Shown here piece by piece: positions 23,596 to 37,143 of a stretch of DNA of 64,000 nucleotides (the stretch's first letter is position 1; each line of letters opens with the position of its first letter). This stretch comes from Solirubrobacteraceae bacterium. GTDB lineage: Bacteria; Actinomycetota; Thermoleophilia; Solirubrobacterales; Solirubrobacteraceae. Location: assembly GCA_035473995.1 (NCBI GenBank), contig DATINR010000132.1, forward strand, positions 9,737-73,736. The letters are read 5' to 3'. The translations under genes were made by a program, and so were the position numbers. The notes below the pieces were generated by a model. That model did no database searches. It had not been told where the DNA came from and saw nothing but the letters and a program-made list of their open reading frames with translations.

Positions 23596-24408
23596 ATGAC
23601 CGTCGTCTCCGCCGGCGAGATCGAGCTCGACTACGAACGCAGCGGCAACGCTTCCGGGCCGCCGCTGCTGTTGATCATGGGCATGAGCGGCACGGCGCTC
23701 CACTGGGGCGAACCGTTCCTCGAGCTGCTGCGCGCCGACTTCGACGTGATCGCCTACGACCACCGCGGCGTCGGCGCGAGCACGCCGCCGGAGGGTCCGG
23801 TCACGATCCGCCAGATGGCCGACGACGCAGCGGGCCTGCTCGCGGCGCTCGAGCTCGACTCGGCGCACGTGCTGGGCATCTCGATGGGCGGCATGATCGC
23901 GCAGGAGCTGGCGCTCGAGCACCGCGAGCGGATCCGCACGCTGACGCTCGGCTGCACCTACTGCGGCGGCCCGGGCAGCGCGCTCGCCTCCGAAGCGGTG
24001 ACGGGCAAGCTCGGCGCGGCGATGGCCTCGGGCGACATGGAACGGGCGACCCGTGCCGCCTGGGAGATCAACGTCTCGCCTGCAATGGCCGCCGACGAGC
24101 AGGCGTGGGAGCGGTTCCGCGCGACCGGCATGCGCCGGGCCGTGGCTGTGCCCGTGATCGTGCAGCAGCTGCAAGCCTGCGCGGCGCACGACACCTACGA
24201 GCGCCTGCCCGAGCTGGCGGGGCTGCCGACGCTCGTGATCCACGGCACCGAGGACGAACTGCTGCCGGTGCAGAACGGCAAGCTGATCGCCTCGCGCATC
24301 CCCGGCTCGCAGCTGGAGATCTTCGACGGCGTCGGGCACCTGTTCTTCTGGGAGCGCCCCGAGCGCTCGGCCGAGCTCGTGCGCGCGCTTGCCTCCGTCC
24401 CAGCCTGA
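23596..24408 (+). CDS. Alpha/beta-fold hydrolase
   Basis: YDHRGVGAS, GISMGG, HGTEDELL, GHL; TAGGAT-N6-ATG. Confidence 0.9.
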   Translation: MTVVSAGEIELDYERSGNASGPPLLLIMGMSGTALHWGEPFLELLRADFDVIAYDHRGVGASTPPEGPVTIRQMADDAAGLLAALELDSAHVLGISMGGMIAQELALEHRERIRTLTLGCTYCGGPGSALASEAVTGKLGAAMASGDMERATRAAWEINVSPAMAADEQAWERFRATGMRRAVAVPVIVQQLQACAAHDTYERLPELAGLPTLVIHGTEDELLPVQNGKLIASRIPGSQLEIFDGVGHLFFWERPERSAELVRALASVPA

Positions 24409-25237
24409 GGAGCTGAACGTCGAGACCGGCGGCGTCACGCTGTCGGGCGAGCGCGTGGGGGAGGGCGTGCCGATCGTGTTGCTGCATGGGTTGACGGCGA
24501 CGCGCCGCTACGTCGTGATGGGTTCGCGAGCGCTCGAGCGCTCGGGTCATCTCGTCGTCTCCTACGACGCGCGCGGGCACGGGCGCTCCTCGCCGGCGCC
24601 GAAGCCGGGCGCCTACGGCTACGAGCTGCTTGCGGCGGACCTCGTCGCCGTGCTCGACGAGCTTGGCCTCGAGCGGGCCGTGCTGGCGGGCGCCTCGATG
24701 GGCGCGCACACGGCGCTCGCGCTCGCGCTGTCGGCGCCCGAGCGCGTCGCCGGGCTGGTGCTGATCACGCCGTCCTTCGACCCCGGCGATCCGCGCGAGC
24801 ACAGTGAGCTGGCGCGCTGGGATGCGCTCGCGCGGGGGCTGCGCGAGGGCGGCGTCGACGGCTTCGTCGCGGCCTATGACTTGGACGAGGTGCCCGAGGC
24901 GTGGCGCGCGACGGTAGAGACCGTGCTGCGCCAGCGCCTGTCCGCGCACGAGCACCCGCTCGCCGTTGCCGACGCGCTGGAAGCCGTGCCGCGCTCGCAC
25001 CCGTTCGAGCGGATCGAGCAGCTGGGGGCGCTGCGCATGCCGACGGTCGTCGTCGGCAGTCGCGACGAAGCCGATCCGGGGCATCCGCTGGCCGTGGCCG
25101 AGCGCTACGCCGCCGCGATTCCCGGCGCGCGACTGGTCGTGGAGGACGCCGCGGAGCCCGCGCGCTCGCCGATCGCCTGGCAGGGGGGACAGCTCTCTCG
25201 CGTGATCGCCGAACTCGCCTCGCCGTCTTCGTCCTGA
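24389..25237 (+). CDS. Alpha/beta-fold hydrolase
   Basis: LLHGL, YDARGHGRS, GASMGA; 20-bp overlap with previous gene. Confidence 0.85.
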   Translation: MPPSQPEELNVETGGVTLSGERVGEGVPIVLLHGLTATRRYVVMGSRALERSGHLVVSYDARGHGRSSPAPKPGAYGYELLAADLVAVLDELGLERAVLAGASMGAHTALALALSAPERVAGLVLITPSFDPGDPREHSELARWDALARGLREGGVDGFVAAYDLDEVPEAWRATVETVLRQRLSAHEHPLAVADALEAVPRSHPFERIEQLGALRMPTVVVGSRDEADPGHPLAVAERYAAAIPGARLVVEDAAEPARSPIAWQGGQLSRVIAELASPSSS

Positions 25238-25246
25238 TTATTGATA

Positions 25247-25260
25247 TACGTGATAACGTA
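25247..25260. promoter_or_regulatory. Palindrome TACGT-GATA-ACGTA overlapping -10-like TAACGT
   Basis: In an AT-rich 30-bp gap before the methyltransferase. Confidence 0.35.
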
Positions 25261-25267
25261 CAAGCGT

Positions 25268-26032
25268 ATGCCAGAGACGCGGACATGGGACGGCAGCAGC
25301 TACGACCGGATCTCCGGTCCGATGGAGGCGCTCGGCCTGGCCGTGCTCTCGCGCCTGGAGCTCACCGGCGATGAGACGGTGCTCGACGCGGGCTGTGGCT
25401 CGGGGCGGATCACGCAGGCGCTGATCGAGCGGCTGCCGGAGGGGCATGTCGTCGCCGCCGACGCGTCCGCCTCGATGGTCGCCGCCGCGCGCGAGCGGCT
25501 GCCCGGCGCCGACGTGCGCCGGATCGATCTGCTCGAGCTCGACCTCGCCGCGCTCGGCCTGAGCGAGCCGCTCGACGCGATCCTCTCGACGGCCACCTTC
25601 CACTGGATCCTCGATCACGATGCCCTGTTCCGGCGGGTGCGCGGCGTGCTGCGCGCGGGTGGGCGGCTCGTCGCGCAGTGCGGCGGGCGCGGCAACATCG
25701 ACGTGCTGCGCGGGCATGCGCACGATGTGCTCGCGCGCGAACCGTACGCCGCGCACTTCGGCGACTTCCGCCAGCCGTGGAACTACGCCGGGCCCGAGGA
25801 GACGCAGCGACGGCTGCTCGATGCCGGCTTCGCCGAGGCCGAGTGCTGGCTCGAGCCGGCGCCGAAGGAGCCCGATCAGCCGCGCGAGTTCCTCTCGACG
25901 ATCGTGCTCGGGCCCCACTACCAGCACCTGCCCGAGGATCTGCGCGAGCCGTTCATCGACGACGTGCTCGCCGAGCTGGGCGAGCCCGTGGTCGTCGACT
26001 ACGTGCGACTGAACATCGACGCTACGGCGTAG
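25268..26032 (+). CDS. Class I SAM-dependent methyltransferase (Tam-like)
   Basis: VLDAGCGSG, ILSTATFHWI, LRAGGRLVAQCGG. Confidence 0.88.
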   Translation: MPETRTWDGSSYDRISGPMEALGLAVLSRLELTGDETVLDAGCGSGRITQALIERLPEGHVVAADASASMVAAARERLPGADVRRIDLLELDLAALGLSEPLDAILSTATFHWILDHDALFRRVRGVLRAGGRLVAQCGGRGNIDVLRGHAHDVLAREPYAAHFGDFRQPWNYAGPEETQRRLLDAGFAEAECWLEPAPKEPDQPREFLSTIVLGPHYQHLPEDLREPFIDDVLAELGEPVVVDYVRLNIDATA

Positions 26033-27860
26033 CCACGGCGACGTCGACGCCGCGCAGCAGCTCCGCGTAGCGGCCGCCGCGCTCGACCAGCTCCTCGTGC
26101 GTGCCGCGCTCGACGATCTGACCGGCGTCGAGCACGAGGATCTGGTCGGCGTCGCGGATCGTCGAGAGGCGGTGGGCGATCGCGATCGTCGTGCGCCCGC
26201 GCGCGAGCTCGTCGAGCGCGTGCTGCACGGCGCGCTCGGTCTCGTTGTCTAGCGCCGAAGTCGCCTCGTCGAGGATCAGCACCGGCGGATTTCGCAGCAC
26301 CGTGCGCGCGATCGCCATGCGCTGCTTCTCCCCGCCCGAGAAGCGGTAGCCGCGCTCGCCGACCGGCGTGTCATACCCATCCGGCAGCGAGGCGATCAGC
26401 TCGTGGATCTGCGCCGCGCGGGCCGCGTCTTCGATCTGCTCGTCCGTGGCCTCGGGGCACGCGAAGCGCAGGTTCTCGCGGATCGAGGCATGGAACAGGT
26501 AGGTCTCCTGCGAGACGAGCCCGACCGTCGCCGCCAGCGAGGCGAGCGTCATGTCGCGGATGTCGACGCCGTCGATGCTCACGCTGCCGCGCTCGGGCTC
26601 GTACAGGCGTGCGACGAGATAGGCCAGCGTCGTCTTGCCCGAGCCCGTCTCGCCGACCAGGGCCGTCGTGCTGCCCGCGGGGATCTCGGCGGAGATGGCC
26701 GACAACGTCCACGGCGAGTCGGCGGCGTAGCGAAACCAGACGTCCGCCAGACGCACATCGCCGCGCACGTCGCCGATCGCCCGTGCATCCGGGTGCTCGA
26801 CGATGTCGACCGGCAGATCGAGGTACTCGAAGATACGGCCGAAAAGCGCCAGCGAGGTCTGCACTTCGAGGCCGACCGAGAGCAGCGACTGAATCGGGAA
26901 CAGCAGGCGCGTCTGCAGCGTCGTGAAGGCGACGACCGTGCCGATCGAGATCGCGTTGCCGCCTGAGCCGTGATCGACGCCCGAGAACAGGTACACGAGC
27001 GCGGGCATGATCGCGAAGCTCATCTGCACCGAGGCCATGCGCCAGCGCCCGGCCATCCGCGCGCGCACCTCCAGGTCGGCGAGCTCGCCCGACTCGCCGC
27101 TGAAGCGCCTGACGAGCTCGGGCGAGCGGCCCATCGTCTTGCCGAGCAGGATGCCCGAGACCGAGAGCGACTCCTCGACGAGCGTCGACATGTCGGCGAG
27201 GCGACTCTGCCTGACCGACTGGATGCGCCGGCGCTCCTCGCCGACGCGGCGGGTCAGCCACACGAAGAAGGGGAGCAGCACGAGCGAGAACGCGGCCAGA
27301 CGCCAGTCCAGCAGCACCATCGCGACGACCGTCGCCATCACCGTCGTCACGTTCTGAACGATCGAGGTCGCCGTCGAGGTGACGACGCTGTCGACGCCGC
27401 CGATGTCGTTGGCGATCCGCGACTGCACCTCGCCCGTGCGCGTGTGCGTGAAGAAGGCCAGCGACATGCGCTGCAGGTGCGCGTAGACGGCCGCGCGCAG
27501 GTCGTGCATCACGCGCTGGCCGACCTGGTTGGAGATCCACGTCTGCGCGACGCCGATCACGCTCGTGATGATCGACAGCGCGATCATCCCCGAGACGAGC
27601 TCGATCACCAACGTCGTGTCGTGCTGCGGATAGGCCTTGTTGATGAATTCCCGCAGCAGGAACGGACTGATCACGCCGAGTCCCGCCGAGACGAAGATCA
27701 GGCCGAGCAGCAGGCTCAGGCGGGGGCGGTAGGGTCGGAACAGGCGAGCTACGCGCCTGAGTGAGACCGGGGTCGAGGGTACGTCCTCGGGCCGGAGCTC
27801 CGGACGCGGCGAGTGGCGTCCTTCCCCCGAGCGGCCCTGAGAGAAGGGCTGGCTGCTCAC
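26022..27860 (-). CDS. ABC exporter, fused permease/ATPase half transporter
   Basis: TM domain, Walker A GETGSGKT, signature FSGGEKQR, Walker B LILDEATSALD, AHRLST. Confidence 0.95.
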   Translation of the reverse strand: MSSQPFSQGRSGEGRHSPRPELRPEDVPSTPVSLRRVARLFRPYRPRLSLLLGLIFVSAGLGVISPFLLREFINKAYPQHDTTLVIELVSGMIALSIITSVIGVAQTWISNQVGQRVMHDLRAAVYAHLQRMSLAFFTHTRTGEVQSRIANDIGGVDSVVTSTATSIVQNVTTVMATVVAMVLLDWRLAAFSLVLLPFFVWLTRRVGEERRRIQSVRQSRLADMSTLVEESLSVSGILLGKTMGRSPELVRRFSGESGELADLEVRARMAGRWRMASVQMSFAIMPALVYLFSGVDHGSGGNAISIGTVVAFTTLQTRLLFPIQSLLSVGLEVQTSLALFGRIFEYLDLPVDIVEHPDARAIGDVRGDVRLADVWFRYAADSPWTLSAISAEIPAGSTTALVGETGSGKTTLAYLVARLYEPERGSVSIDGVDIRDMTLASLAATVGLVSQETYLFHASIRENLRFACPEATDEQIEDAARAAQIHELIASLPDGYDTPVGERGYRFSGGEKQRMAIARTVLRNPPVLILDEATSALDNETERAVQHALDELARGRTTIAIAHRLSTIRDADQILVLDAGQIVERGTHEELVERGGRYAELLRGVDVAVATP

Positions 27861-27895
27861 GTATCGAGGGTAGCGGCGGCGATAGCTTGAGTCCT

Positions 27896-28474
27896 GTGAC
27901 AGCCTCGGTCGACCTCTACTGGCTGCCGCTGGGGGCGGGCGGATCGTTTGTGAGGCTCAACGGCCGGATCTTCGAGGCGCTCGCGGCGAGGTTCCAGCGG
28001 CGCCCGCCGCGCGACCTCTATCACTCGGCACTGCAGGTGCACGTGGACGGGGCGAGGTTCGTGATCGAGCAGACCCCGGTCCCCGACCTCAGCGGCGATC
28101 GACGGGGCGTCGTCGCGCAAGGCGCCGTCGGCGCCCGCTGGGCGGGTCGATTGCGGATCTTCCGCTACGAGATCCGCCTGTGGCGCGAAGGCTCCATCCC
28201 AGACGTCGCCGAGGCCGTGCAGAGTCCGGTGCGGCTTAGCGGCGAGGAGGCCTGCGCGCGGCGCGTGCTCGAGCAGGTCGAGCAGGTGCCGACGCCAGTG
28301 TGGGGCCGCGACGAGCTGGGGGCTGGGGAGATGTGGAACTCCAACGCCGTGATCGCCTGGGTGCTCGCGCGCAGCGGGATCGACGCAGCGTCGATCCGGC
28401 CGCCGGAGGGGGGACGCGCACCGGGCTGGCAGGCAGGGGTCGTCGTCGCGCGCCGCGAAGCTCAGCTGTCGTGA
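27896..28474 (+). CDS. Hypothetical protein, PPPDE/permuted papain-like pattern
   Basis: VDLYWL...YHSALQV...FRYEI...WNSNAVIAW...PGW; TAGCTT-N7-GTG. Confidence 0.55.
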   Translation: MTASVDLYWLPLGAGGSFVRLNGRIFEALAARFQRRPPRDLYHSALQVHVDGARFVIEQTPVPDLSGDRRGVVAQGAVGARWAGRLRIFRYEIRLWREGSIPDVAEAVQSPVRLSGEEACARRVLEQVEQVPTPVWGRDELGAGEMWNSNAVIAWVLARSGIDAASIRPPEGGRAPGWQAGVVVARREAQLS

Positions 28475-28508
28475 CCGGCGCTTCAACGGTGTTCTAGGCT
28501 CAAGCGCG

Positions 28509-29294
28509 ATGGATCCAGCAACTGCCGGCATGTCGGGCCTCTCTGCCGCCGAGACGCGCGTGCTCGGCTGCCTCTTGGAAAAGCAGCGCACGACGCCTGA
28601 GCAGTACCCGCTGTCGCTGAACGCGCTGCGGCTGGCGTGCAACCAGTCGACCAACCGCGACCCGGTAGTCGCTTACGACGAGGCGACGATCCGTGACGCC
28701 CTGCACCGGCTCGAGCGCCGGCGCCTGGTGCGCTTCGCCAGCGGCAGCCGCGCCGCGAAGTACCGCCACCTGCTCGAAGAAGTGCTGCCGCTGGAGGAGG
28801 GCGAACGCGCGGTGATGACCGTGCTGCTGCTGCGCGGCGCGCAGACACCGGGCGAGCTGAAGCAGCGCACCGAGCGGATGCATGCGTTTGCCGAGCTCGC
28901 GGGCGTGCAAGACACGCTCGAGCGACTGATCGGGCGCGAGCTGGTGAGAAGGCTCGACCGGCGCCCGGGGCAGAAGGAGGAGCGCTACGAGCAGTTGCTG
29001 CAGGGCGGGGAGGAGGGCGAGGTGGTCGGCACCGTCTCCGCGGCCACCGAGGCCGAGCAGACGAGCACGAATGGCGTCGGGGGTGCCGCGACTTCGGCAT
29101 CGCCGGCACAGGGCCCCGCGTCGGGCACTGCGGAGAACCCGAAGCCAGAGAGCGCGGAGCTGCAGGAGTTGCGCGAGCGCGTCGAGCGCCTGGAACGCGA
29201 AGTGGCCGAGCTGCGCTTCGCGATGCGCAATCCTTCACCTAACCCGTTGCCGGGCCCAGCCCATGATCCCTCCCGCTTTGATCCTCGCCTCTAG
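28509..29294 (+). CDS. YceH/DUF480-family protein
   Basis: RVLGCLLEKQRTTPEQYPLSLNALRLACNQSTNRDPV, LLLRGAQTPGEL, PGQKEERY. Confidence 0.9.
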   Translation: MDPATAGMSGLSAAETRVLGCLLEKQRTTPEQYPLSLNALRLACNQSTNRDPVVAYDEATIRDALHRLERRRLVRFASGSRAAKYRHLLEEVLPLEEGERAVMTVLLLRGAQTPGELKQRTERMHAFAELAGVQDTLERLIGRELVRRLDRRPGQKEERYEQLLQGGEEGEVVGTVSAATEAEQTSTNGVGGAATSASPAQGPASGTAENPKPESAELQELRERVERLEREVAELRFAMRNPSPNPLPGPAHDPSRFDPRL

Positions 29295-30036
29295 CGCCGA
29301 CACGGCCACCGGCGTCGGCATTCCGCTGGCGCTTGCAGCCGGCTTCGTGTCGTTCCTCTCGCCGTGTGTGCTGCCGCTCGTGCCGGGCTACCTCTCGACG
29401 GTGATCGGCGTCACGCCGAACGACCTGAAGGCAGGCGTGGGCGTGCGCCGCGTGCTCGTGCCGAGCCTCTTGTTCATCGCGAGCTTCTCGCTGATCTTCA
29501 TCCTGCTGGGCCTCTCGGCGACGGTGATCGGCTCGACGCTGAACGAACACAAACAGCTGCTCAACCACGTCGGCGGCGCCGTGATCATCGCGCTTGGCGT
29601 CGTCTTCCTGGCGAGCCCATTCATCAACATGCTCAACCGCGAGTGGCACTCCGAAACTTTGCTGCGGCTGGCGGGGAAGGGGGGACCGCTGATGGCCGGC
29701 GCGGCTTTCGCGATCGCCTGGACGCCCTGCACGAGCATCACGCTCGGGGCGATCCTCACGCAGGCCGCCGTTTCGAGCTCGGCAGCGCACGGGGCCCTGC
29801 TGCTCGCGTTCTACTCGCTCGGGCTGGCGATCCCGTTCCTGCTGATCGCCGTGGCGTTCGAGCGGATGACCGGGGCGCTGGCGGTCGTCAAGCGGCACTT
29901 CCCCGTGATCATCGGGATCGGCGGGGCCGTGATGATCGTGCTGGGGGTGTTGATCGTGACGGGGGAGTTCACGGTGCTGAATGCCGAAGCGAACAAGCTG
30001 CTGCAAGGGACGGGGTTGGACGTTTCGGGGGTTTGA
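29263..30036 (+). CDS. ccdA: Cytochrome c biogenesis / thiol-disulfide transporter CcdA
   Basis: SFLSPCVLPLVPGYL and AWTPC Cys motifs, six TM. Confidence 0.88.
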   Translation: MIPPALILASSADTATGVGIPLALAAGFVSFLSPCVLPLVPGYLSTVIGVTPNDLKAGVGVRRVLVPSLLFIASFSLIFILLGLSATVIGSTLNEHKQLLNHVGGAVIIALGVVFLASPFINMLNREWHSETLLRLAGKGGPLMAGAAFAIAWTPCTSITLGAILTQAAVSSSAAHGALLLAFYSLGLAIPFLLIAVAFERMTGALAVVKRHFPVIIGIGGAVMIVLGVLIVTGEFTVLNAEANKLLQGTGLDVSGV

Positions 30037-30046
30037 CGCGACGCGC

Positions 30047-30084
30047 CGGCGACGCGCGGAGTCCGATGGCTCCACGCGTCGCCG
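30047..30084. terminator. Hairpin between convergent genes
   Basis: CGGCGACGCG / CGCGTCGCCG 10-bp arms plus inner GGAG/CTCC. Confidence 0.5.
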
Positions 30085-30105
30085 AAAGGGATGCCCGGAC
30101 CGGCG

Positions 30106-30789
30106 CTATGCCGCGATTTCTACTTCGATTTCTTTTCCTTCTTTTTTGAAGGCGGTCATCGTGTCGACCGTTTCCACGCCCGCAAATTCGAATTCAGGCG
30201 AGTTGCGCGCGGTTTCGAGCTTGCAGGTGATGAATTTTTCTTCCTCGTTGAAGACTTCGACGATGTCGTTGACGCCTTTTTCCTGCTTGAATTCCGTCAC
30301 GAGTTCTTTCGTTTTTTTATTGAGAGGTTTGACTAAGCCAGCCATACAGCCTCGAAGTTTCACGATCGTTTTGCCGCATTCGATTTTCGCTTCGGTTGGT
30401 AAGAAGACGAGTCCCGTTTGTAATGCTTTCGTTAATAAGACGTACCACACGTGGAAGGCGCCTTTGAGCGTGATCTGCTGTTCTTTGTCGCCGGTGCCTA
30501 AGCAGGAGGTTTTTCCTTCGGTTAAGCAGGCCATGAAGGTGGTCGAGAATTCGCCTAATTTTAAGCCCGTAACTTTGCCTGTGCCCGTGCCTTTTTCGCA
30601 GTTGATCTGAAAGCCGTTTTTTTCTTCGAAGTGAGTGATGCCGTGTTTGGCGGTGAATTCGATCGGTACTTTTGCCGTTGCTTCGGGTAAGAATTGAGGT
30701 TTCACCGCGGCGCTCGCCGGGGCAGCTGCGATTGCGCTCATTGCGGCAACTGCCACGAGCGCGCCGATCAGTGCTCTTGGCAACTTCAT
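30106..30789 (-). CDS. Secreted Lys/Glu-rich hypothetical protein with 6 Cys and AT-rich coding sequence
   Basis: Signal peptide MKLPRALIG...PASA, AAGGAG RBS, beta-rich mature part. Confidence 0.75.
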   Translation of the reverse strand: MKLPRALIGALVAVAAMSAIAAAPASAAVKPQFLPEATAKVPIEFTAKHGITHFEEKNGFQINCEKGTGTGKVTGLKLGEFSTTFMACLTEGKTSCLGTGDKEQQITLKGAFHVWYVLLTKALQTGLVFLPTEAKIECGKTIVKLRGCMAGLVKPLNKKTKELVTEFKQEKGVNDIVEVFNEEEKFITCKLETARNSPEFEFAGVETVDTMTAFKKEGKEIEVEIAA

Positions 30790-31058
30790 GTTTGACACTC
30801 CTTGTGTTGGTGTGCGGTGAGTCCGCCCCCTCCGCTGCGCGCGTCGGCGGCGGATCTTCTCGAGGCCGAGGAATACTTTCTGGGAGTTACGGCCTAGGCG
30901 ATAATCCCATGTGGCCGTTGAGCTCGGCAAGCGATCTGGATGCCTGTCTCCGACGCTAAGCACCCTTCTGTAAACGCAGGCCGATGGCTACAATGGTCAC
31001 GGCGCCGCAGTGATCAAAACGGCCGCTGCGGCCGTCCAGCAACACGGCGAGCGCCGTA

Positions 31059-31838
31059 TCAGAGGGCCGGCTGCCCGGTCGTCCGCGTGGCGCGTGGCCG
31101 CTGTCTGTATCGCCCTTCCCAAGCCTCCTGATTGCGCTTCGCATCCAGCACAAACGGCGACCACCCGATCGCCCTTACGATCCAGCGGTTGATCGTCGAC
31201 TCAGGCTCAGGCAGCGGCCGCAGCACGTCCACGAACAGCACGACGCGAGTCTCATCGGTGTCGTTCCACACCTCGTGGTTGAAGGTGTCGTCGAAGACCA
31301 TGCTCTTGCCGGCTTCCCAGTGGCGGTAGTCCTCGCCGACGCGGATGCGGCAGGACTCGGCGTCCTCGGGCACGACAAGCCCCAGGTGGTAGCGCAGCAC
31401 GCCCTTGTAGGGCCCCCGGTGGTCGAGGATGTGCTTGCGCGGGGAGAGGATCGAGAACATCGCCGTCGTCATGCCCGGGATCTCGCGCATCAGCGCCGCC
31501 GTGTTCGGGCACATCTCGACGCCCAGCTTCGCCTCGAAGCCGTAGCCGTAGAGGAAGAACGTCTTCCAGCGGTCGTCGTCGGTGATCTCGATCTGGTCCT
31601 TGGAGATGTCCTGAAAGTTTGCCAGCGCGTCGCGATCCTCGAGCAGCCGCTCGGCCTCCTCGCGGATCACCTCCCAGTTCTGCTCGATGTGCGCCACCCA
31701 CGGGAAGCGCTCGAGCGGGAAGAACGTCGCATCGCCGACGAGCGAGCGTTTGCCGATGAAGCGCTCGATCGGTGCGAGGACTCGTTCGCCGACCGAGATA
31801 GTCGTCTCGACGATGCGCTCCCATAGCGACTTGGACAC
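31059..31838 (-). CDS. Aspartyl/asparaginyl beta-hydroxylase-domain 2OG-Fe(II) dioxygenase
   Basis: HRGPYKGVLRYHLGL, FDDTFNHEVWN, RVVLFVD. Confidence 0.88.
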   Translation of the reverse strand: MSKSLWERIVETTISVGERVLAPIERFIGKRSLVGDATFFPLERFPWVAHIEQNWEVIREEAERLLEDRDALANFQDISKDQIEITDDDRWKTFFLYGYGFEAKLGVEMCPNTAALMREIPGMTTAMFSILSPRKHILDHRGPYKGVLRYHLGLVVPEDAESCRIRVGEDYRHWEAGKSMVFDDTFNHEVWNDTDETRVVLFVDVLRPLPEPESTINRWIVRAIGWSPFVLDAKRNQEAWEGRYRQRPRATRTTGQPAL

Positions 31839-31966
31839 GTTGATCGCCTCCCGTGCTTGATGTCACCTTCGCGGCTTGCCATGGCGAGCCGTTGCGCGGC
31901 CAGCCTAGCCGACCACTACCCCGGATCGGCCCCATCCACTAGCCTGCGCCACCGAGGGGAGACACC

Positions 31967-32785
31967 GTGACGATCGACGCCTGGATGCAGCACCCGACGG
32001 TCCGCTTCAGCGAGCACGAGATGTTCGACTCGCTGCGGCGCTGGACCGGCCAGCAGCCGCTCGAGCAGGAGCTGCCGATCGCGATGACGCTCGCCGCGAT
32101 GGACCACGCCGGCGTCGACTTCGCCCTGCTCAGCGCCTGGCACGCCCCGCGCGAGGGCGCGCTGATATCGAACGACGAGGTCGCCGGCTGGGTCTCCGAG
32201 CACCCCGACCGCCTCGCCGGCCTCGCCGCCGTCGATCTCGACAAGCCGATGCAGGCCGTGCGCGAGCTGCGCCGCTGCGTGGGCGAGCTCGGCTTCAAGG
32301 GACTGCGGGCGCTGCCGTGGCTGTGGGACGCGCCGCCGACCGACCGCCGCTACTACCCGCTGTATGCAGCCTGCGTCGAGCTCGGCGTGCCCTTCTGCAC
32401 GCAGGTCGGCCACGCCGGCCCGCTGCGGCCCTCAGAGCCCGGCCGCCCGATTCCCTACATCGACCAGGTCGCGATCGACTTTCCCGAGCTCGTGATCGTC
32501 GGCGGGCACATCGGCTACCCGTGGACCGAGGAGATGATCGCCGTCGCGCGCAAGCACGAGAACGTCTACATCGACACCTCTGCCTACACGAGCAAGCGCA
32601 TCCCGCCCGAGTTCGTCGCCTACATGCACACCGCCAGCGGCGCGCGCAAGGTCCTCTACGGCAGCAACTACCCGATGATCATGCCCCAGGCCGCGCTGGC
32701 CGACCTCGACGCGCTCGGGCTGGACGACGAGACGCGCGAGCTGTACCTCGCCGGCAACGCCCGGCGCGTGTTCGGTCTCGCTTGA
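31967..32785 (+). CDS. Amidohydrolase_2-family metal-dependent hydrolase
   Basis: IDAWMQH, GGHIGYPW, VYIDTS, LYGSNYP. Confidence 0.88.
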   Translation: MTIDAWMQHPTVRFSEHEMFDSLRRWTGQQPLEQELPIAMTLAAMDHAGVDFALLSAWHAPREGALISNDEVAGWVSEHPDRLAGLAAVDLDKPMQAVRELRRCVGELGFKGLRALPWLWDAPPTDRRYYPLYAACVELGVPFCTQVGHAGPLRPSEPGRPIPYIDQVAIDFPELVIVGGHIGYPWTEEMIAVARKHENVYIDTSAYTSKRIPPEFVAYMHTASGARKVLYGSNYPMIMPQAALADLDALGLDDETRELYLAGNARRVFGLA

Positions 32786-32822
32786 GCAGCCACGGCGGCC
32801 GGCGGCGGAGTCGGTTAAACAG

Positions 32823-32850
32823 CGAGGCCCCGTCTCTCGACAGGGCCTCG
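32823..32850 (-). terminator. Intrinsic terminator of sigma factor gene
   Basis: Minus strand CGAGGCCC-TGTC-GAGA-GACG-GGGCCTCG followed by CTGTTT; GNRA loop. Confidence 0.7.
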
Positions 32851-32882
32851 TCTGCGCATCTAGATGCTTGTGGAGCTTTGGC

Positions 32883-33863
32883 TTACGCGGCCTCGCGCAG
32901 TGCCGCCAGCTCAGGCGACTCGGCGAGCTTCTTCAGCGCGCGCTGCTCGAGCTGTGAGGCACGCTCGGCCGAGAAGCCGAGCCTTTTGCCGATCGCCGTC
33001 AGCGTCTGCGGCTCCTCTCGGCCGGTGCCGAAGCGCAGCGTCAGCACGGTGCGCTCGGTCTCGGGCAGCTCGGAGATCGCGCGGTGCACGATCCGCTCGC
33101 GCTCGTTGTCCCAGGCCGTCTCCTCCGGCGCCTCCGCGTCGGAGGGGAGCAGGTCGCCGAGCGCGGTGTCGCCGTCTTCGCCGATCTGCTGGTCGAGCGA
33201 TACGAGGGCCGCGCGCTGGTGGCGCACCTCCTCGACCTGCTCGATCGGCAGCCCGGTCTCCTCGGCGAGCTCCTCGATCGTCGGCTCGCGCCCGAGCCTG
33301 ACCGACAGCTCGCGCTCGACCCGGCCGACCTTGCGCGAGCGCTGAGCGACGTGCACGGGCAGGCGGATCGTGCGCCCCGAGTTCTCCAGGCCGCGCTGAA
33401 TGGCCTGGCGGATCCACAGGGTCGCGTACGTGGAGAAGCGGAAGCCCTTGCGCCAATCGAACTTCTCCGAGGCGCGAATCAGGCCGAGCATGCCCTCCTG
33501 GACAAGATCGCCCAAGGGCAGGCCCTGGTTCTGGTAGCGCCTGGCGTTCGAAGCCACGAGGCGCAGGTTGGAGTTGACGAGCAGTTCCTTGGCGTGCAGG
33601 TCGCCGCGCTCGATCCGCTGAGCCAGGTCGATCTCCTGGGCCGGCGTGAGCAGCGGGTAGCGGCGCGAATGCGCCAGCAGCTGGTCTACCGCCTCCGGGA
33701 TGAACGAATCGGGCGTGCTCAGGTCGAGCTTCTCGATCGGGCTGTCGAGCCTGTCCGGCGCAGCCTTCGGCGTCTCCTCAACCGTCTCAGGCTCGTGCTC
33801 AGCCGTGATCTCGGTCGTGGGCCGCTCTATCGTTGGGGTTGAACTTCTGGGGGAATCTGGCAT
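32883..33863 (-). CDS. RNA polymerase sigma-70 factor, RpoD/SigA-like but lacking region 1.1 (group-2-like)
   Basis: Region 1.2 PLLTPAQE, NLRLV, DLVQEG..GLIRA.EKFD..KGFRFSTYA..WIRQAI, TIRLPVH, region-4 HTH. Confidence 0.93.
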   Translation of the reverse strand: MPDSPRSSTPTIERPTTEITAEHEPETVEETPKAAPDRLDSPIEKLDLSTPDSFIPEAVDQLLAHSRRYPLLTPAQEIDLAQRIERGDLHAKELLVNSNLRLVASNARRYQNQGLPLGDLVQEGMLGLIRASEKFDWRKGFRFSTYATLWIRQAIQRGLENSGRTIRLPVHVAQRSRKVGRVERELSVRLGREPTIEELAEETGLPIEQVEEVRHQRAALVSLDQQIGEDGDTALGDLLPSDAEAPEETAWDNERERIVHRAISELPETERTVLTLRFGTGREEPQTLTAIGKRLGFSAERASQLEQRALKKLAESPELAALREAA

Positions 33864-33895
33864 TTGAACCTTCTAATCCGATGCTTGGAGTCGGA

Positions 33896-33924
33896 ATTAT
33901 ACGCCGCGATAGTTGCGTTGTCAA
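33896..33924 (-). promoter_or_regulatory. Perfect consensus promoter TTGACA-N17-TATAAT
   Basis: Minus strand TTGACA ACGCAACTATCGCGGCG TATAAT, 32 bp upstream of the sigma factor ATG. Confidence 0.85.
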
Positions 33925-33928
33925 CTAT
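33909..33928. promoter_or_regulatory. Operator-like palindrome ATAGTTG-N6-CAACTAT overlapping the -35 box
   Basis: Perfect 7-bp arms read directly. Confidence 0.6.
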
Positions 33929-34136
33929 GTCTTGGGCACACCCGTTTCGGGGTCTCGTTCGACGTTCCCTGTGCAACTACCTGCCCGCTGGGACATGAAA
34001 CTATGCGGCGCTTACCCGGACATAAACCCGTAAGACCGGCAAAAGGCTCTGCGCCTGCAAGCTGCCGCAGGGACCGTCTTTGCCGATATCGGGCCGCGCC
34101 CGCCCGGGGCTGAGCGAAGCGGGCTAAGCTCGGCGA

Positions 34137-34883
34137 ATGGGCATCGACCTCTCCGATCGCGTCGTAGCCGTGACCGGCGCCTCCTCGGGCATCGGCGAGG
34201 CAACGGCGCTCGCCTGCGCCAAGGCCGGCGCCGCCGTCGCGCTGGCCGCGCGGCGCAGCGACCGGATCGATGCGCTCGCCCAGCGCATCCGGAGCGAGGG
34301 CGGGCGGGCGATCGCCGTGCAGACCGATGTCGGCGAGGAGGACCAGGCGCGCGCCTTCGTCGAGCGCACCAACGACGAGCTCGGCCGGATCGACGTGCTC
34401 GTCAACAACGCCGGCACGATGCTGCTCGGGCCGATCCTCGGCGCGCCGACCGAGGAATGGCGGCAGATGATCCACGCCAACGTCTACGGCGTCCTCTACT
34501 GCACCCACGCCGCGCTGCCGCTGATGGCCAAGCAGGGATCCGGGCACATCGTCAACGTCAGCTCCGTCGCCGGGCGCTTCGCCCGCGAGGGCTCAGGCGT
34601 CTACAACCTGACCAAGTTCGGCGTCGGCGCCTTCTCGGAGTCGCTGCGCCAGGAGGGCGTGCGCTACGGCGTGCGCGTCACGCTGATCGAGCCCGGCGCA
34701 GTGGCCACCGAGCTCTCCGGGCACAATCGGCCCGAGATCAGGGAGCAGATCAAGCAGATCTTCGCCGAAGTCGAGCCGCTCACGGCCGAGGACATCGCGG
34801 CTGCCGTGCTCTATGCGATCGGCCAGCCGCCGAACGTGAGCGTCAACGAGGTGCTCGTGCGCCCCAGCGGGCAGGCTCGCTGA
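34137..34883 (+). CDS. Short-chain dehydrogenase/reductase (YdfG/NADP-type)
   Basis: TGASSGIG, NNAG, NVSS, YNLTK; TAAGCT-N6-ATG. Confidence 0.93.
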   Translation: MGIDLSDRVVAVTGASSGIGEATALACAKAGAAVALAARRSDRIDALAQRIRSEGGRAIAVQTDVGEEDQARAFVERTNDELGRIDVLVNNAGTMLLGPILGAPTEEWRQMIHANVYGVLYCTHAALPLMAKQGSGHIVNVSSVAGRFAREGSGVYNLTKFGVGAFSESLRQEGVRYGVRVTLIEPGAVATELSGHNRPEIREQIKQIFAEVEPLTAEDIAAAVLYAIGQPPNVSVNEVLVRPSGQAR

Positions 34884-34926
34884 GCGAAGCAGCTGATCGG
34901 CTCCCGCGGGGGTCCGCCTCGCCTGC

Positions 34927-34953
34927 GGGAAGGTTCTCCACTGCGCGGCGTCT
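34927..34953 (+). promoter_or_regulatory. ECF-sigma-like promoter copy 1 (GGGAAG-N17-GTCT)
   Basis: GGGAAGGTTCTCCACTGCGCGGCGTCT; same spacing as 38555 and 41988. Confidence 0.65.
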
Positions 34954-35001
34954 GAGGGTCTGAAGCAAGAAGCACCGACCCCAGCGACAGGAGGCCACAC
35001 A

Positions 35002-35583
35002 GTGAGACGTCCCCTTGCGCTCGGCGCAGCCGCGACCGCAGTCGCGCTGCTCGCCGGATGCGGCAGCAGCAGCTCGAGCAGCAGCAGCTCCACCGCCGCC
35101 TCGACCCCGGCGTCGACGGCGAGCACGGCTGCATCGACGAGCACGACCGCCGCAGCAGGCCCCGGCGTAGCCGTCGAAAGCAAGCACGCCAAGCTCGGCA
35201 CGATCCTCGCCGCCGGGCCGAAGAAGCTGACCGTGTACATGTTCGAGGCCGACAAGGGGACGACGTCGAGCTGCAGCGGCGCCTGCGCCAAGGTGTGGCC
35301 GCCCGTGACCACCTCCGGTGCGCCCACCGCCGCCGGCGGCGCCGTCAGCGCCGACCTCGGCACGACCAAGCGCTCCGACGGCACAGAACAGGTCACCTAC
35401 AAGGGCCACCCGCTGTACTTCTACGACGACGACAAGGACGCCGGCGACGCCTACGGCCAGGGCTCGAAGGCGTTCGGCGCGAGTTGGTACGTGCTCAACC
35501 CGAGCGGCGCGAAGATCGACGAGGACTCGGGCGGCAGCAAGGGCGGCGGCTCCGGCGGCTCGGGCTACGGTTCGCAATCGTGA
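35002..35583 (+). CDS. COG4315-type (Lipoprotein_15 repeat) lipoprotein
   Basis: Lipobox LLAGC, Ser/Thr linker, TVYMFEAD..C.GACAKVWPP and QVTYKGHPLYFY..D repeats; AGGAGG RBS. Confidence 0.85.
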   Translation: MRRPLALGAAATAVALLAGCGSSSSSSSSSTAASTPASTASTAASTSTTAAAGPGVAVESKHAKLGTILAAGPKKLTVYMFEADKGTTSSCSGACAKVWPPVTTSGAPTAAGGAVSADLGTTKRSDGTEQVTYKGHPLYFYDDDKDAGDAYGQGSKAFGASWYVLNPSGAKIDEDSGGSKGGGSGGSGYGSQS

Positions 35584-35712
35584 GGTAGCCGCAATGCTTG
35601 CGCCGGGCTGTGGCGGCCCGGCGTCGAGGGGGGTGGGGATGAACAGCTCGGCGGGGGCGGTCGCGACTGGCGGCGGCCGCTCCGCCGGGTCCCCATCCCG
35701 CGCGCCCAGGCG

Positions 35713-36150
35713 CTAGTCGACCGCCTGCCCGTTGGCCGTCAGCAGCACGTCGATGTTGCCGCGCGTCGCGTTCGAGTACGGGCAGACCTTGTGCCCCGCG
35801 CGCACGAGCTCGGCCGCCTGCTCGGCGTCCTCGATCGAGGGCAGCCTCACGTGCAGCTCCACCGCGACCGTGAACGCGCGGTCCTCGGTCGTGACCAGCG
35901 AGACCTTCGAGTCGACTTCGACATCGTCTGCCTCCACCTTCATCCGCCGCGACACCGTTTGCAGCGCGCTCTCGAAGCACGCCGCGTAGCCGACCGCGAA
36001 CAGCTGCTCCGGGTTCGTGCCGTCCTCCTCGCCGCCAAGCTCCTTCGGCACGCGCAGGTCGACCTCGAGCGCGCCGTCCGACGTGCGCCCGTGGCCGTCT
36101 TTGCGCCCGCCAGTGACGTGCGCTTCGGCTGTGTACAGAGCTTTGCTCAT
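35713..36150 (-). CDS. ohr: Organic hydroperoxide resistance protein
   Basis: GGRKDG, TNPEQLFAVGYAACF, HKVCPYSNATRGN. Confidence 0.93.
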   Translation of the reverse strand: MSKALYTAEAHVTGGRKDGHGRTSDGALEVDLRVPKELGGEEDGTNPEQLFAVGYAACFESALQTVSRRMKVEADDVEVDSKVSLVTTEDRAFTVAVELHVRLPSIEDAEQAAELVRAGHKVCPYSNATRGNIDVLLTANGQAVD

Positions 36151-36201
36151 GCAGTTCCCTCCGGCTGGTTCGTTCTGATCAATTAATAAATAGATGGCCG
36201 C

Positions 36202-37143
36202 TCAGGCAGTCCCGCCGGTCGGCGCGACGGACTCGATCTCGAGCAGCTCGCCGCCCGCGTGGTCGACCTGCAGTGTCGTGTGGTCGAGCGCGAAGCGCTC
36301 GTGCAGCATCGCCTCCATCGCGCGCCGTGCCTGGTGGCAGTTGCAGTCGGCGCCGACCAGCACGTGCGCCGAGAGCGCCGGGAAGCCGCTCGAGATTTCC
36401 CACACGTGCAGGTCGTGCACCTCGACCACGCCCGGTGCTGCCACCAGCGCACGGCCGATCGCCTGCGGGTCGAGGTCCTCCGGCGCCGCCTCCATGAAGA
36501 TCCGCGCCGAGGCCTTCACCAGCATCACGCCCGAGCGCGTCATCAGCGCCGCGATCAGCAGCGAGACGATCGGGTCCGCGCGCTGAAAGTGAGTCGCCAG
36601 GATCACGATCGCCGCCACCGCCGTGCCGATGAACGCCCACAGGTCCGTCAGCAGGTGCTGGAAGGAGCCCTCGATGTTGAGGCTTTCGCGGTTCGCCTTC
36701 GCCAGCGTCCACGTCGCCACCAGGTTGACGAGCACGCCAACGAGCGCCACGACCAGGATCAGCCAGCCGCGCACGACCGGCGGGTCGAACAGGCGGCGGA
36801 TGCCCTCGTATGCGATGAACGCCGCCAGGATCAACAGCGTCACGCCGTTGGCCTGCGCCGAGAGGATCTCCGCGCGCTTGAAGCCGAACGTCATCGCGCC
36901 CTTCGCCGGACGCGCCGCCAGCGTGATCGCGAACAGCGAGAAGCCGATCGCAGCTGCGTCCGTGAGCATGTGCCCCGCGTCCGAGAGCAGCGCCAGCGAG
37001 TGCGCGACCACGCCGACGGCCACCTCCGCCGCCATGAACGCCAGGATCAGCCCGAGCGCCAGCGCCAGGCGACCGCGGTCCGCGTCGGCGCGCACAGCGT
37101 GCGTGTGGCCTGCATGGGAGTGCCCCGCGTGCTCGTTCCTCAT
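36202..37143 (-). CDS. Cation diffusion facilitator, CzcD/ZitB-like (Zn/Co/Cd)
   Basis: His-rich N-terminus, LSDAGHMLTD, HLLTD, VHDLHVW, HTTLQ. Confidence 0.92.
   Translation of the reverse strand: MRNEHAGHSHAGHTHAVRADADRGRLALALGLILAFMAAEVAVGVVAHSLALLSDAGHMLTDAAAIGFSLFAITLAARPAKGAMTFGFKRAEILSAQANGVTLLILAAFIAYEGIRRLFDPPVVRGWLILVVALVGVLVNLVATWTLAKANRESLNIEGSFQHLLTDLWAFIGTAVAAIVILATHFQRADPIVSLLIAALMTRSGVMLVKASARIFMEAAPEDLDPQAIGRALVAAPGVVEVHDLHVWEISSGFPALSAHVLVGADCNCHQARRAMEAMLHERFALDHTTLQVDHAGGELLEIESVAPTGGTA

Follow-up and report, generated by a model that had tools for sequence, protein, structure and literature searches.

Selected A-ending codons in secretome genes of a Solirubrobacteraceae genus, with TTA-loaded genes for predicted secreted beta-barrels and an orphan tRNA(UAA)

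A 64,000 nt stretch of contig DATINR010000132.1 (the window; assembly GCA_035473995.1, Solirubrobacteraceae bacterium) carries at 30106–30789 a gene of aberrant codon composition for a predicted secreted protein (the window gene and window protein). Genes for secreted proteins throughout the source genome (G000) show a lineage-specific bias towards GAA for Glu and AAA for Lys, referred to here as the GAA/AAA dialect. Atop this dialect lies a separate, all-or-none layer, in which members of one secreted protein family are loaded with TTA, the rarest codon of the genome. The A-ending codons of the window gene are under purifying selection, and its genus carries a conserved orphan tRNA with anticodon UAA beside a gene resembling that of arginyl-tRNA synthetase (ArgRS). 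Control of synthesis by scarce decoders is the explanation rated highest, tentatively and at a little under an even chance.

The source assembly is a metagenome-assembled genome (MAG) of 3.21 Mb in 202 contigs with 69.8% GC, and its lowest-GC 300-bp window (0.463) falls inside the window gene. An earlier reading made from the letters alone (the sequence-only reading) described a GC-rich leader of about 28 codons followed by a low-GC remainder, and this was confirmed, codons 1–28 having 66.7% GC and codons 29–227 47.9%. Its counts of ten in-frame TTA codons, including a TTA TTA pair (codons 118 and 119), and of six Cys (residues 64, 88, 96, 138, 148 and 189) also agree with the recount. The switch to AAA, GAA and TTT that it saw in the mature region was correct for AAA and GAA (AAA 23/AAG 3 and GAA 24/GAG 1 in the whole coding sequence) but not for TTT; the TTT runs it noted arise because the plus strand shows the complement of AAA. 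Pyrimidine-ending codons keep a host-like preference for C (TTC 12/TTT 2, ATC 12/ATT 0, AAC 5/AAT 1, GAC 3/GAT 0), and the codon reversal is restricted to AAR, GAR and TTR, the purine-ending split boxes of Lys, Glu and Leu. The nine Leu codons other than TTA are CTC (six), TTG, CTG and CTT (one each), and those of the signal peptide are TTG, CTG and CTC, with no TTA. Coordinates of all features are given in Table 1.

The nearest relatives with orthologs are two uncultured Solirubrobacteraceae MAGs (OY969911.1, 93% identity; CAVQNP010000002.1, 79%). Both orthologs are collinear with the window gene from Met to stop and lie between the same aspartyl-hydroxylase-like and ccdA-like genes. Neighbouring proteins of the window are 81–99.7% identical to their counterparts in CAVQNP010000002.1, most of them above 92%, and the window gene is the fastest-evolving of its block (region 24106–36789), at 79% compared with 95–99.7% for the flanking sigma factor, CcdA-like and ABC-type proteins. 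No mobile-element genes occur nearby, as the sequence-only reading had stated, and gene order is kept in the two relatives. On these comparisons the window gene is resident, not foreign, though fast-evolving. The proposal of a passenger cassette swapped in behind a conserved leader is contradicted by the full-length collinear orthologs in the same gene neighbourhood, by paralogs that are homologous throughout, in leader and mature part alike, and by the host-like C preference at pyrimidine-ending codons. The leader is GC-rich because of its Ala, Val and Leu content and because TTA is missing from signal peptides across the family, which also accounts for its native look.

Silent sites were compared wherever the window gene and the 79% ortholog encode the same residue. 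Third-base differences occur at 52 of 80 four-fold codons (65%), 14 of 36 pyrimidine-ending two-fold codons (39%), 3 of 42 Lys/Glu codons (7%) and none of nine Leu TTR codons (0%). Pooled, the Lys, Glu and Leu TTR codons (3/51) differ from the pyrimidine-ending and four-fold classes with Fisher p values of 2e-4 and 2e-12, respectively. All three Lys/Glu differences are AAG in the window gene and AAA in the ortholog; the tenth TTA site of the window gene is AAG (Lys) in the same ortholog, and one TTA is TTG in the 93% ortholog. As A-ending Lys, Glu and Leu codons are kept in a genome of 70% GC while other silent sites diverge, these synonymous codons are under purifying selection. The pattern is the opposite of amelioration, and the low GC of the window gene reflects selection on particular codons rather than foreign ancestry. 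The sequence-only reading had allowed that full-length orthologs might share the composition through amino-acid bias; the orthologs do share it, but the bias lies in synonymous choice, which amino-acid content does not explain.

The preference for A-ending Lys and Glu codons extends across the predicted secretome. With a gene caller and a signal-peptide rule that are both crude, the 1,663 genes of the source genome with neither a signal peptide nor a transmembrane (TM) segment use AAA for 12.5% of Lys and GAA for 12.8% of Glu, compared with 35.4% and 56.8% in the 188 genes with a signal peptide and no TM segment. The median fraction of A-ending codons among Lys and Glu codons (A-fraction) is 0.43 in the secreted set and 0.105 in the cytoplasmic set. 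Usage in four-fold boxes, pyrimidine-ending pairs and CAA/CAG is the same in both sets (CAA share 0.09 vs. 0.11, with no enrichment in the secreted set). The window gene ranks second of 2,131 genes by A-fraction, and 56 of the top 60 have a signal peptide or a single hydrophobic segment. The highest-ranking genes come from unrelated families, nearly all with signal peptides, and nearly all outliers classed as non-secreted carry an N-terminal hydrophobic segment overlooked by the signal-peptide rule. Paralogs of the window gene in the genome are all AAA/GAA-biased, while the housekeeping genes for DnaK, IF2, GAPDH and enolase use AAG and GAG. The preference is present for every preceding and following base and along the entire gene.

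The same pipeline was applied to 400 kb from each of three other genomes. A member of the same genus (G005) shows the dialect, with AAA at 0.34 in secreted and 0.11 in cytoplasmic genes and GAA at 0.60 and 0.13. It is absent from a genome of another genus of the same family (G106; AAA 0.007 in both sets, GAA 0.044 vs. 0.059) and from one of another family (G025; AAA 0.07 vs. 0.10, GAA 0.15 vs. 0.14), and the comparison also serves as a control against an artefact of classification. Avoidance of Shine-Dalgarno-like sequences was rejected as the main driver: the preference for A is somewhat higher before G, yet every context shows the bias, and GGA, GGG and AGG are not avoided. A general relaxation of GC content at third positions (GC3), or low expression, was rejected on the identical four-fold and pyrimidine-ending usage of secreted and cytoplasmic genes, and a translationally optimal set of A-ending codons on the preference of housekeeping genes for AAG and GAG. 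A literature search turned up no account of a dialect of this kind. One secreted, Glu-rich protein of 469 aa, with GAA 52/GAG 1 (G000:C87:49436-50845), is encoded about 100 nt from a tRNA-Lys(UUU) gene (C87:49255-49327).

GAA makes up 13% of cytoplasmic and 57–60% of secreted Glu codons in G000 and G005, and both genomes appear to have tRNA-Glu of the CUC type only. No tRNA-Glu(UUC) gene was found in G000 (by aragorn) or in the single-contig G005 (by the Rfam tRNA model and aragorn; 47 tRNAs, all typed), nor by anticodon-loop patterns, a group I intron search, or blastn with the tRNA-Glu(UUC) of G025, the genome of another family (L089:1480-1551). By blastn, CUC-type tRNA-Glu alone was also seen in G106, G089, G031 and G039, where the dialect is absent or untyped; since some genomes without the dialect share this state, a missing UUC gene is insufficient to explain it. 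In G023, three matches to group I introns lie within 5 kb of one another (C1:1904152-1909374), of which one exceeds the Rfam cut-off; none were seen in G000 or G005.

TTA is the rarest Leu codon of the source genome, as the sequence-only reading had supposed, at about 0.2 per 1000 codons. It is far from common: 2,343 of the 2,500 called genes have none and 141 have one, and the housekeeping genes for DnaK, IF2, GAPDH and enolase are all without it. Only two genes exceed three, with 10 in the window gene and 11 in its distant paralog on contig C111, and together they hold 21 of the 191 TTA codons of the genome; no other real gene has more than two. Counts across the family are bimodal, either 0–2 or 6–20 per gene, and loaded members occur in G000, G003, G015, G022, G023, G237, G238, G254, G269, G277 and G279. 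The loaded genes are also raised in ACA, GTA, GCA, ATA and CTA.

Thirty-five members with known DNA were aligned to the family profile, and TTA was found to occupy a different class of site. At TTA positions, TTA-free members carry T (17%), E (14%), K (12%), S (8%) or A (7%), with 19% hydrophobic residues, whereas CTN or TTG positions correspond to L, V, I, A or F, with 57–59% hydrophobic. Columns that are hydrophobic in TTA-free homologs make up 3 of 29 TTA columns and 16 of 22 CTN/TTG columns (p 6e-6). Interchange between TTA and CTN is rare (~5%), while CTN and TTG do interchange. All nine loaded members have TTA in column 77, where 16 of the 26 TTA-free members have T; in column 120, eight of the nine loaded members have TTA, and K is the commonest residue (10 members) among the TTA-free. 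TTA persists in the same columns among paralogs of about 30% identity, and its sites are spaced i, i+2 along predicted strands, which would place them on one face of the sheet. A 100-protein alignment gave the same contrast of polar and hydrophobic positions at the window gene's own TTA sites. In 18 loaded genes, TTA accounts for 0 of 70 Leu codons in signal peptides and 201 of 452 in mature parts. Taken with solvent exposure as predicted from the homolog profiles, TTA is placed only at putative surface positions.

The window protein has the features of a Sec-type secreted, disulfide-containing protein, and its family appears to be expanded in one genus of uncultured Solirubrobacteraceae. A HMMER library search (E<=0.001) collected 730 clusters at 50% identity, mostly proteins of ~230 aa, including nine close homologs of 55–93% identity; Pfam and NCBIfam gave chance-level matches only. 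From an alignment of 100 of the 730 clusters, AlphaFold2 (AF2) produced a model with a mean predicted local distance difference test (pLDDT) of 91.9 and a predicted template-modelling score (pTM) of 0.84, in which a helix is followed by an all-beta domain of long antiparallel strands; the helix is that of the signal peptide (residues 5–20, low pLDDT). The window protein is thus confidently modelled as an 8-stranded up-and-down beta-barrel. Foldseek searches of PDB with the model returned no matches at E<=0.001, while VIA-align, run against ~48,000 PDB representatives, placed the OprF-N, OmpA and OmpW barrels (among them 4rlc, 3nb3 and 2f1t) at Z 9.8–10.3, with 123–138 residues aligned at 5–12% identity, and designed barrels, avidins, YceI and the TbpB handle at Z 6.6–9.9. 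According to the model, the likeness to OprF-N, OmpA and OmpW is one of common fold, not of family membership. The up-and-down 8-stranded topology is common to the OmpA, OmpW and OprF-N barrels and to their soluble relatives (avidin, YceI, TbpB handle). Compared with OmpA-type barrels, the window protein shows no sequence relationship or Pfam family, and it has three probable disulfides, a Sec signal peptide and an actinobacterial host. On the outward side, TTA-free members have T, E or K, which gives them a polar exterior as in soluble barrels, and loaded members have TTA; whether the latter have a hydrophobic, lipid-facing exterior depends on what TTA encodes.

The same barrel domain is C-terminal in several large multidomain secreted proteins of the source genome. 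It forms the C-terminus of a phospholipase-C-like protein of ~860 aa (G000:C115:26784-29639) and is found in tandem small genes beside a secreted NHL/Fn3-like protein of 1,337 aa (G000:C78:8291-14435); these C115 and C78 genes are all GAA/AAA-biased.

The source genome has two tRNAs with anticodon UAA. One is the canonical 84-nt tRNA-Leu(UAA), and the other is a 73-nt class-I tRNA encoded behind groEL, where a small contig ends. In bacteria tRNA-Leu belongs to class II, and the short tRNA(UAA) has a body that mismatches the class expected for its anticodon; it is similar to no other tRNA of the genome. It folds into a canonical cloverleaf; across 12 aligned orthologs the acceptor stem and the anticodon loop do not vary, while the anticodon stem shows compensatory substitutions. 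Among 81 genomes sampled from the genus it was detected in 47, and among the 37 of high quality in 30 (the 47/81 tally, like a further tally of 46/81, includes the unpublished genome G248), and in 0 of 16 genomes from other families of the order. Wherever the flank is readable, the short tRNA(UAA) lies directly upstream of, and co-oriented with, an ArgRS-like gene of ~555–610 codons; this pairing was seen in eight genomes (G005, G023, G003, G015, G252, G254, G258 and G279), and the ArgRS-like gene of the source genome stands at the start of contig C150.

The HIGH region of the ArgRS-like protein matches ArgRS (PF00750; PDB 1iq0, E 4e-11), the Pfam match being to that region only, and the motif H-I-G-H is invariant in 27 sequences. 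Its AF2 model (pLDDT 77.9) aligns over its full length with ArgRS structures (577–647 columns, E 2e-17, TM-score 0.63–0.70), including by Foldseek the yeast ArgRS-tRNA complex 1f7u with its tRNA-binding domains (E 2e-17, TM-score 0.69, 16% identity). The second class-I signature motif appears degenerate, in a poorly modelled region. The source-genome copy, cut at the contig start, scores 48.9 bits with TIGR00456, under the 261.65 cut-off, and the canonical argS on contig C79 scores 392 bits. No ArgRS-like paralog was found in 200 other genomes of the class at E<=1e-20, and database homologs are confined to automatically annotated proteins of soil Solirubrobacteraceae. A third, more degenerate ArgRS-related gene (G000:C144:1711-3156) scores 71.5 bits to argS and shares 35% identity with the tRNA-linked paralog; its HIGH motif is replaced by H-A-G-Y, and its vicinity is without tRNA genes.

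Downstream of the tRNA and ArgRS-like gene are a fused glutamine-amidotransferase/chorismate-binding (PabAB-type) gene, a GNAT or deacetylase-like gene and a gene for a conserved 200-aa protein, while a P450 gene and an argininosuccinate-lyase-like or Lys/Orn N-oxygenase-like gene are divergent from the pair. The distance from this cluster to TTA-rich family genes is at most 5 kb in G015 and G254 and 10–27 kb in G279. Nine of the ten genomes that have loaded genes and were tested for the tRNA are positive, the exception being 64% complete. G279 and G258 carry a second pair, consisting of a short class-I tRNA(UAG) and its own ArgRS-like paralog, 43–47% identical to the UAA-linked proteins. Loaded genes of G279 have 4–5 CTA codons, and those of G003 and G023 have 3–4, although no UAG-type tRNA was detected in the latter two. 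A literature search found no report of such a tRNA and ArgRS-like pair.

Codon-dependent control of synthesis by scarce decoders is the reading that best fits these observations, though it falls somewhat short of an even chance. In Streptomyces, the bldA tRNA-Leu(UAA) gates genes containing TTA. In the genus described here, exported proteins write Glu as GAA and Lys as AAA where cytoplasmic genes use GAG and AAG, and the loaded subclass has in addition 6–20 putative solvent-facing positions written with TTA. Under a comparable arrangement, synthesis would thereby be made dependent on scarce U34-type tRNAs and, for TTA, on a tRNA(UAA) pool that would include the genus-specific 73-nt tRNA beside the ArgRS-fold paralog. 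Output or pace of translation would be set by tRNA supply, in the manner of bldA, and TTA would be confined to sites where slow or error-prone decoding is structurally harmless. Ribosomal use of the orphan tRNA at these codons, a limiting supply of decoders and the identity of the amino acid inserted at TTA are all inferred. The sequence-only reading had raised a translationally gated secreted protein; selection on the codons and a dedicated tRNA(UAA) in the genus speak for that part, but the pattern is unlike gating of the bldA type.

Several observations weigh against control by scarce decoders. Buried and signal-peptide Leu residues stay CTN or TTG although TTA is silently reachable, which simple gating does not predict, and TTA stands where TTA-free homologs have T, E or K, so that gating needs an added argument from accuracy. 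Regulons of the bldA type have one or a few TTA codons in many unrelated genes, whereas here 10–20 are found in genes of one family. To judge from its place in the operon, the orphan tRNA would be charged by the ArgRS-like enzyme and not by leucyl-tRNA synthetase, in which case the residue may not be Leu. Searches for a tRNA-Glu(UUC) gene came up empty, and this reading does not account for the decoding of GAA. That loaded genes and the tRNA occur together is weak support, the 9/10 being set against a background of 58–81% and the genomes being related.

The next explanation, possible but clearly less probable than scarce decoders, is sense-codon recoding or programmed ambiguity, in which the orphan tRNA(UAA), charged by the ArgRS-fold paralog, would put a residue other than Leu at TTA. 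The residue could be arginine, or a special amino acid for which the adjacent PabAB-like, P450, N-oxygenase or lyase genes would be responsible, and at the TTA sites the outer face of the barrel would be polar or special in some other way. Were the short tRNA charged with a residue other than Leu, TTA would have to avoid true Leu sites and sit at polar ones, and this agrees with the complementary placement of TTA and other Leu codons (hydrophobic columns 3/29 vs. 16/22), the TTA-free signal peptides (0/70 vs. 201/452), the rarity of TTA/CTN swaps (~5%) beside regular CTN/TTG exchange, the i, i+2 spacing on strands, and the limitation of the load to one family (21/191 TTA in two genes). It agrees also with a class-I body bearing a Leu anticodon, unlike every other tRNA of the genome, placed co-oriented and immediately 5′ of a full-length, HIGH-retaining ArgRS-fold paralog while the canonical argS lies elsewhere, with the second pair based on tRNA(UAG) in G279 and G258, and with an experimental precedent in actinobacteria, tRNAProX/ProRSx (PMC10404621). 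Decoding could be mixed at best, however, because the canonical tRNA-Leu(UAA) coexists. The apparent degeneration of the paralog's second signature motif, the failure of CTA enrichment to follow the UAG-type tRNA cleanly, and the confident folding of the protein by AF2 with Leu at TTA sites also speak against recoding; alternatively, a natural-product pathway might use the tRNA as a carrier, since its neighbours resemble a biosynthetic cluster. Reassignment or ambiguity of TTA restricted to this family, acting through the tRNA(UAA)/ArgRS-fold pair (and the tRNA(UAG) pair in some species) and giving a non-Leu residue at 6–20 surface positions of secreted barrels, is possible, though less likely than not.

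A third explanation, which seems improbable, requires no special decoding. A subfamily of the barrels would have acquired an outer face rich in Leu and hydrophobic, suited to insertion into membranes, to self-assembly or to the binding of lipids; the A-ending codons, TTA among them, would be a local compositional or mRNA-level preference of secreted genes, and the orphan tRNA would serve secondary metabolism only. That the best structural matches are membrane 8-stranded barrels (OprF-N, OmpA, OmpW; Z ~10) is in its favour, as are the raised ACA, GTA, GCA, ATA and CTA of TTA-rich genes and the biosynthetic look of the tRNA neighbours (PabAB-like fusion, P450, GNAT/deacetylase, N-oxygenase/lyase). 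It leaves unexplained why TTA is confined to the surface while core and signal-peptide Leu are CTN or TTG, and why, at 70% genomic GC, TTA has withstood the silent change to TTG over long evolutionary distances. Real lipid-facing positions of membrane barrels vary among L, V, I, F and A, whereas here TTA trades places with T, E and K within the loaded group too, and the Lys/Glu shift is codon-specific, with GC3 not generally lowered.

Acquisition of an AT-rich gene or passenger cassette that has yet to ameliorate would fit the local GC of 0.46–0.50 in a genome of 0.70 and the fastest evolution in the neighbourhood, but this is contradicted, to the point of being scarcely credible, by conserved synteny with no mobility genes at the locus, by a genus-restricted family with many paralogs that all share the Lys/Glu bias, by the host-like C preference at pyrimidine-ending codons, and by A-ending Lys, Glu and Leu codons that are conserved while other silent sites are scrambled.

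Control by scarce decoders would resemble the bldA system in its high-GC actinobacterial setting, with TTA the rarest codon and nearly absent from housekeeping genes, and a dependence on tRNA(UAA) supply is plausible here. It would differ in the 6–20 TTA codons per gene (one or a few for bldA), in their restriction to one secreted family and to predicted surface positions, and in the second, structurally unrelated 73-nt tRNA(UAA) linked to a synthetase paralog; no developmental regulator was seen. In Streptomyces and Kitasatospora, tRNAProX and ProRSx insert proline at Asn, Thr or Ala codons proteome-wide in a stress response, as shown experimentally (PMC10404621). That system shares with the present one an actinobacterial host and a tRNA of mismatched body and anticodon adjoining a distinct synthetase isoform, with sense codons as the target. 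The differences are the ArgRS fold, the anticodons UAA and UAG and the concentration of the matching codon in a dedicated secreted family. In Magnaporthe oryzae, mRNAs for cytoplasmic effectors are enriched in AA-ending codons (bioRxiv 10.1101/2025.11.10.687658), and such enrichment has been linked to U34 thiolation of tRNA (PMC11705076). There too, a subset of secreted-protein mRNAs is marked by AAA and GAA while highly expressed genes use the AG-ending synonyms. The fungal case concerns a eukaryote and one secretion route and includes CAA, unlike the bacterial genus described here, where most of the predicted secretome is involved, CAA is unshifted and no tRNA-Glu(UUC) gene was found.

New elements are the secretome dialect limited to one genus, the predicted barrel fold, the quantitative tests of site class and signal peptides, the UAG-type second pair, and the finding that loaded genes and the tRNA cluster are physically linked, and there is a substantial chance that the whole is something categorically new. 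Strong lineage-specific selection on the synonymous codons of two amino acids across a secretome offers a natural system for the coupling of codon choice and export. One protein family appears committed to the rarest codon at surface sites of defined structural position, in the same genus that pairs orphan rare-Leu tRNAs with ArgRS-fold enzymes. If the pair decodes these genes, it would be either a bldA-like gate with a tRNA and synthetase of its own, the first of its kind, or a natural expansion of the genetic code on a sense codon, confined to secreted proteins; recoding, if true, would supply an extra coded residue on a sense codon, atop the GAA/AAA dialect. Either outcome would matter for genetic-code evolution, for the annotation of soil metagenomes (proteins mistranslated in databases) and for synthetic biology (an orthogonal pair on a sense codon).

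Table 1. Coordinates of the window gene, its flanking elements and the tRNA(UAG) pairs.
Feature	Sequence	Position	Strand	Remarks
Coding sequence, predicted 227-aa secreted protein	window	30106–30789	-	ATG 30787-30789, TAG 30106-30108; 227 codons + stop
Predicted signal peptide	window	30709–30789	-	codons 1–27; K/R n-region, Ala/Val/Leu h-region, A-S-A before predicted cleavage site
Mature domain	window	30109–30708	-	8-stranded barrel (modelled), six Cys, GC 48%, AAA 23/AAG 2, GAA 24/GAG 1
Ten TTA codons (span)	window	30334–30690	-	codons 34, 76, 78, 89, 97, 118, 119, 123, 130, 152
TTA codon 34	window	30688-30690	-	
TTA codon 76	window	30562-30564	-	
TTA codon 78	window	30556-30558	-	
TTA codon 89	window	30523-30525	-	
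TTA codon 97	window	30499-30501	-	
TTA codon 118	window	30436-30438	-	
TTA codon 119	window	30433-30435	-	
TTA codon 123	window	30421-30423	-	
TTA codon 130	window	30400-30402	-	
TTA codon 152	window	30334-30336	-	
Shine-Dalgarno-like AAGGAG	window	30798–30803	-	8 nt 5′ of ATG; read from sequence
GC-rich inverted repeat, 9 bp	window	30048–30083		arms 30048-30056 and 30075-30083; between window gene and convergent ccdA-like gene
Short class-I tRNA(UAG)	G279, L194	4384-4456		
ArgRS-like gene linked to tRNA(UAG)	G279, L194	4721-6394		N-oxygenase-like gene next
Short class-I tRNA(UAG)	G258, L197	5299-5371		
ArgRS-like gene linked to tRNA(UAG)	G258, L197	3591-5348		

A consensus scan for sigma-70-type promoters found none for the window gene. 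The inverted repeat on its 3′ side may act as a terminator shared with the ccdA-like gene; a terminator scan passed over it because it has no T run.

Two further tRNA-like genes are anomalous. One of 97 nt, present in the source genome (G000:C108:4951-5047) and in G005 (L120:1501-1597), combines an acceptor and T arm of normal form with a long extra arm and an 'anticodon' loop of 8 nt, to which aragorn assigns the 4-base anticodon GGAG, with an identical drawing in both genomes. The other, in G005 (L139:84-168), is an 85-nt class-II tRNA with a Leu-like body and long variable arm that carries the anticodon AUC (Asp box), a mismatch of body and anticodon.

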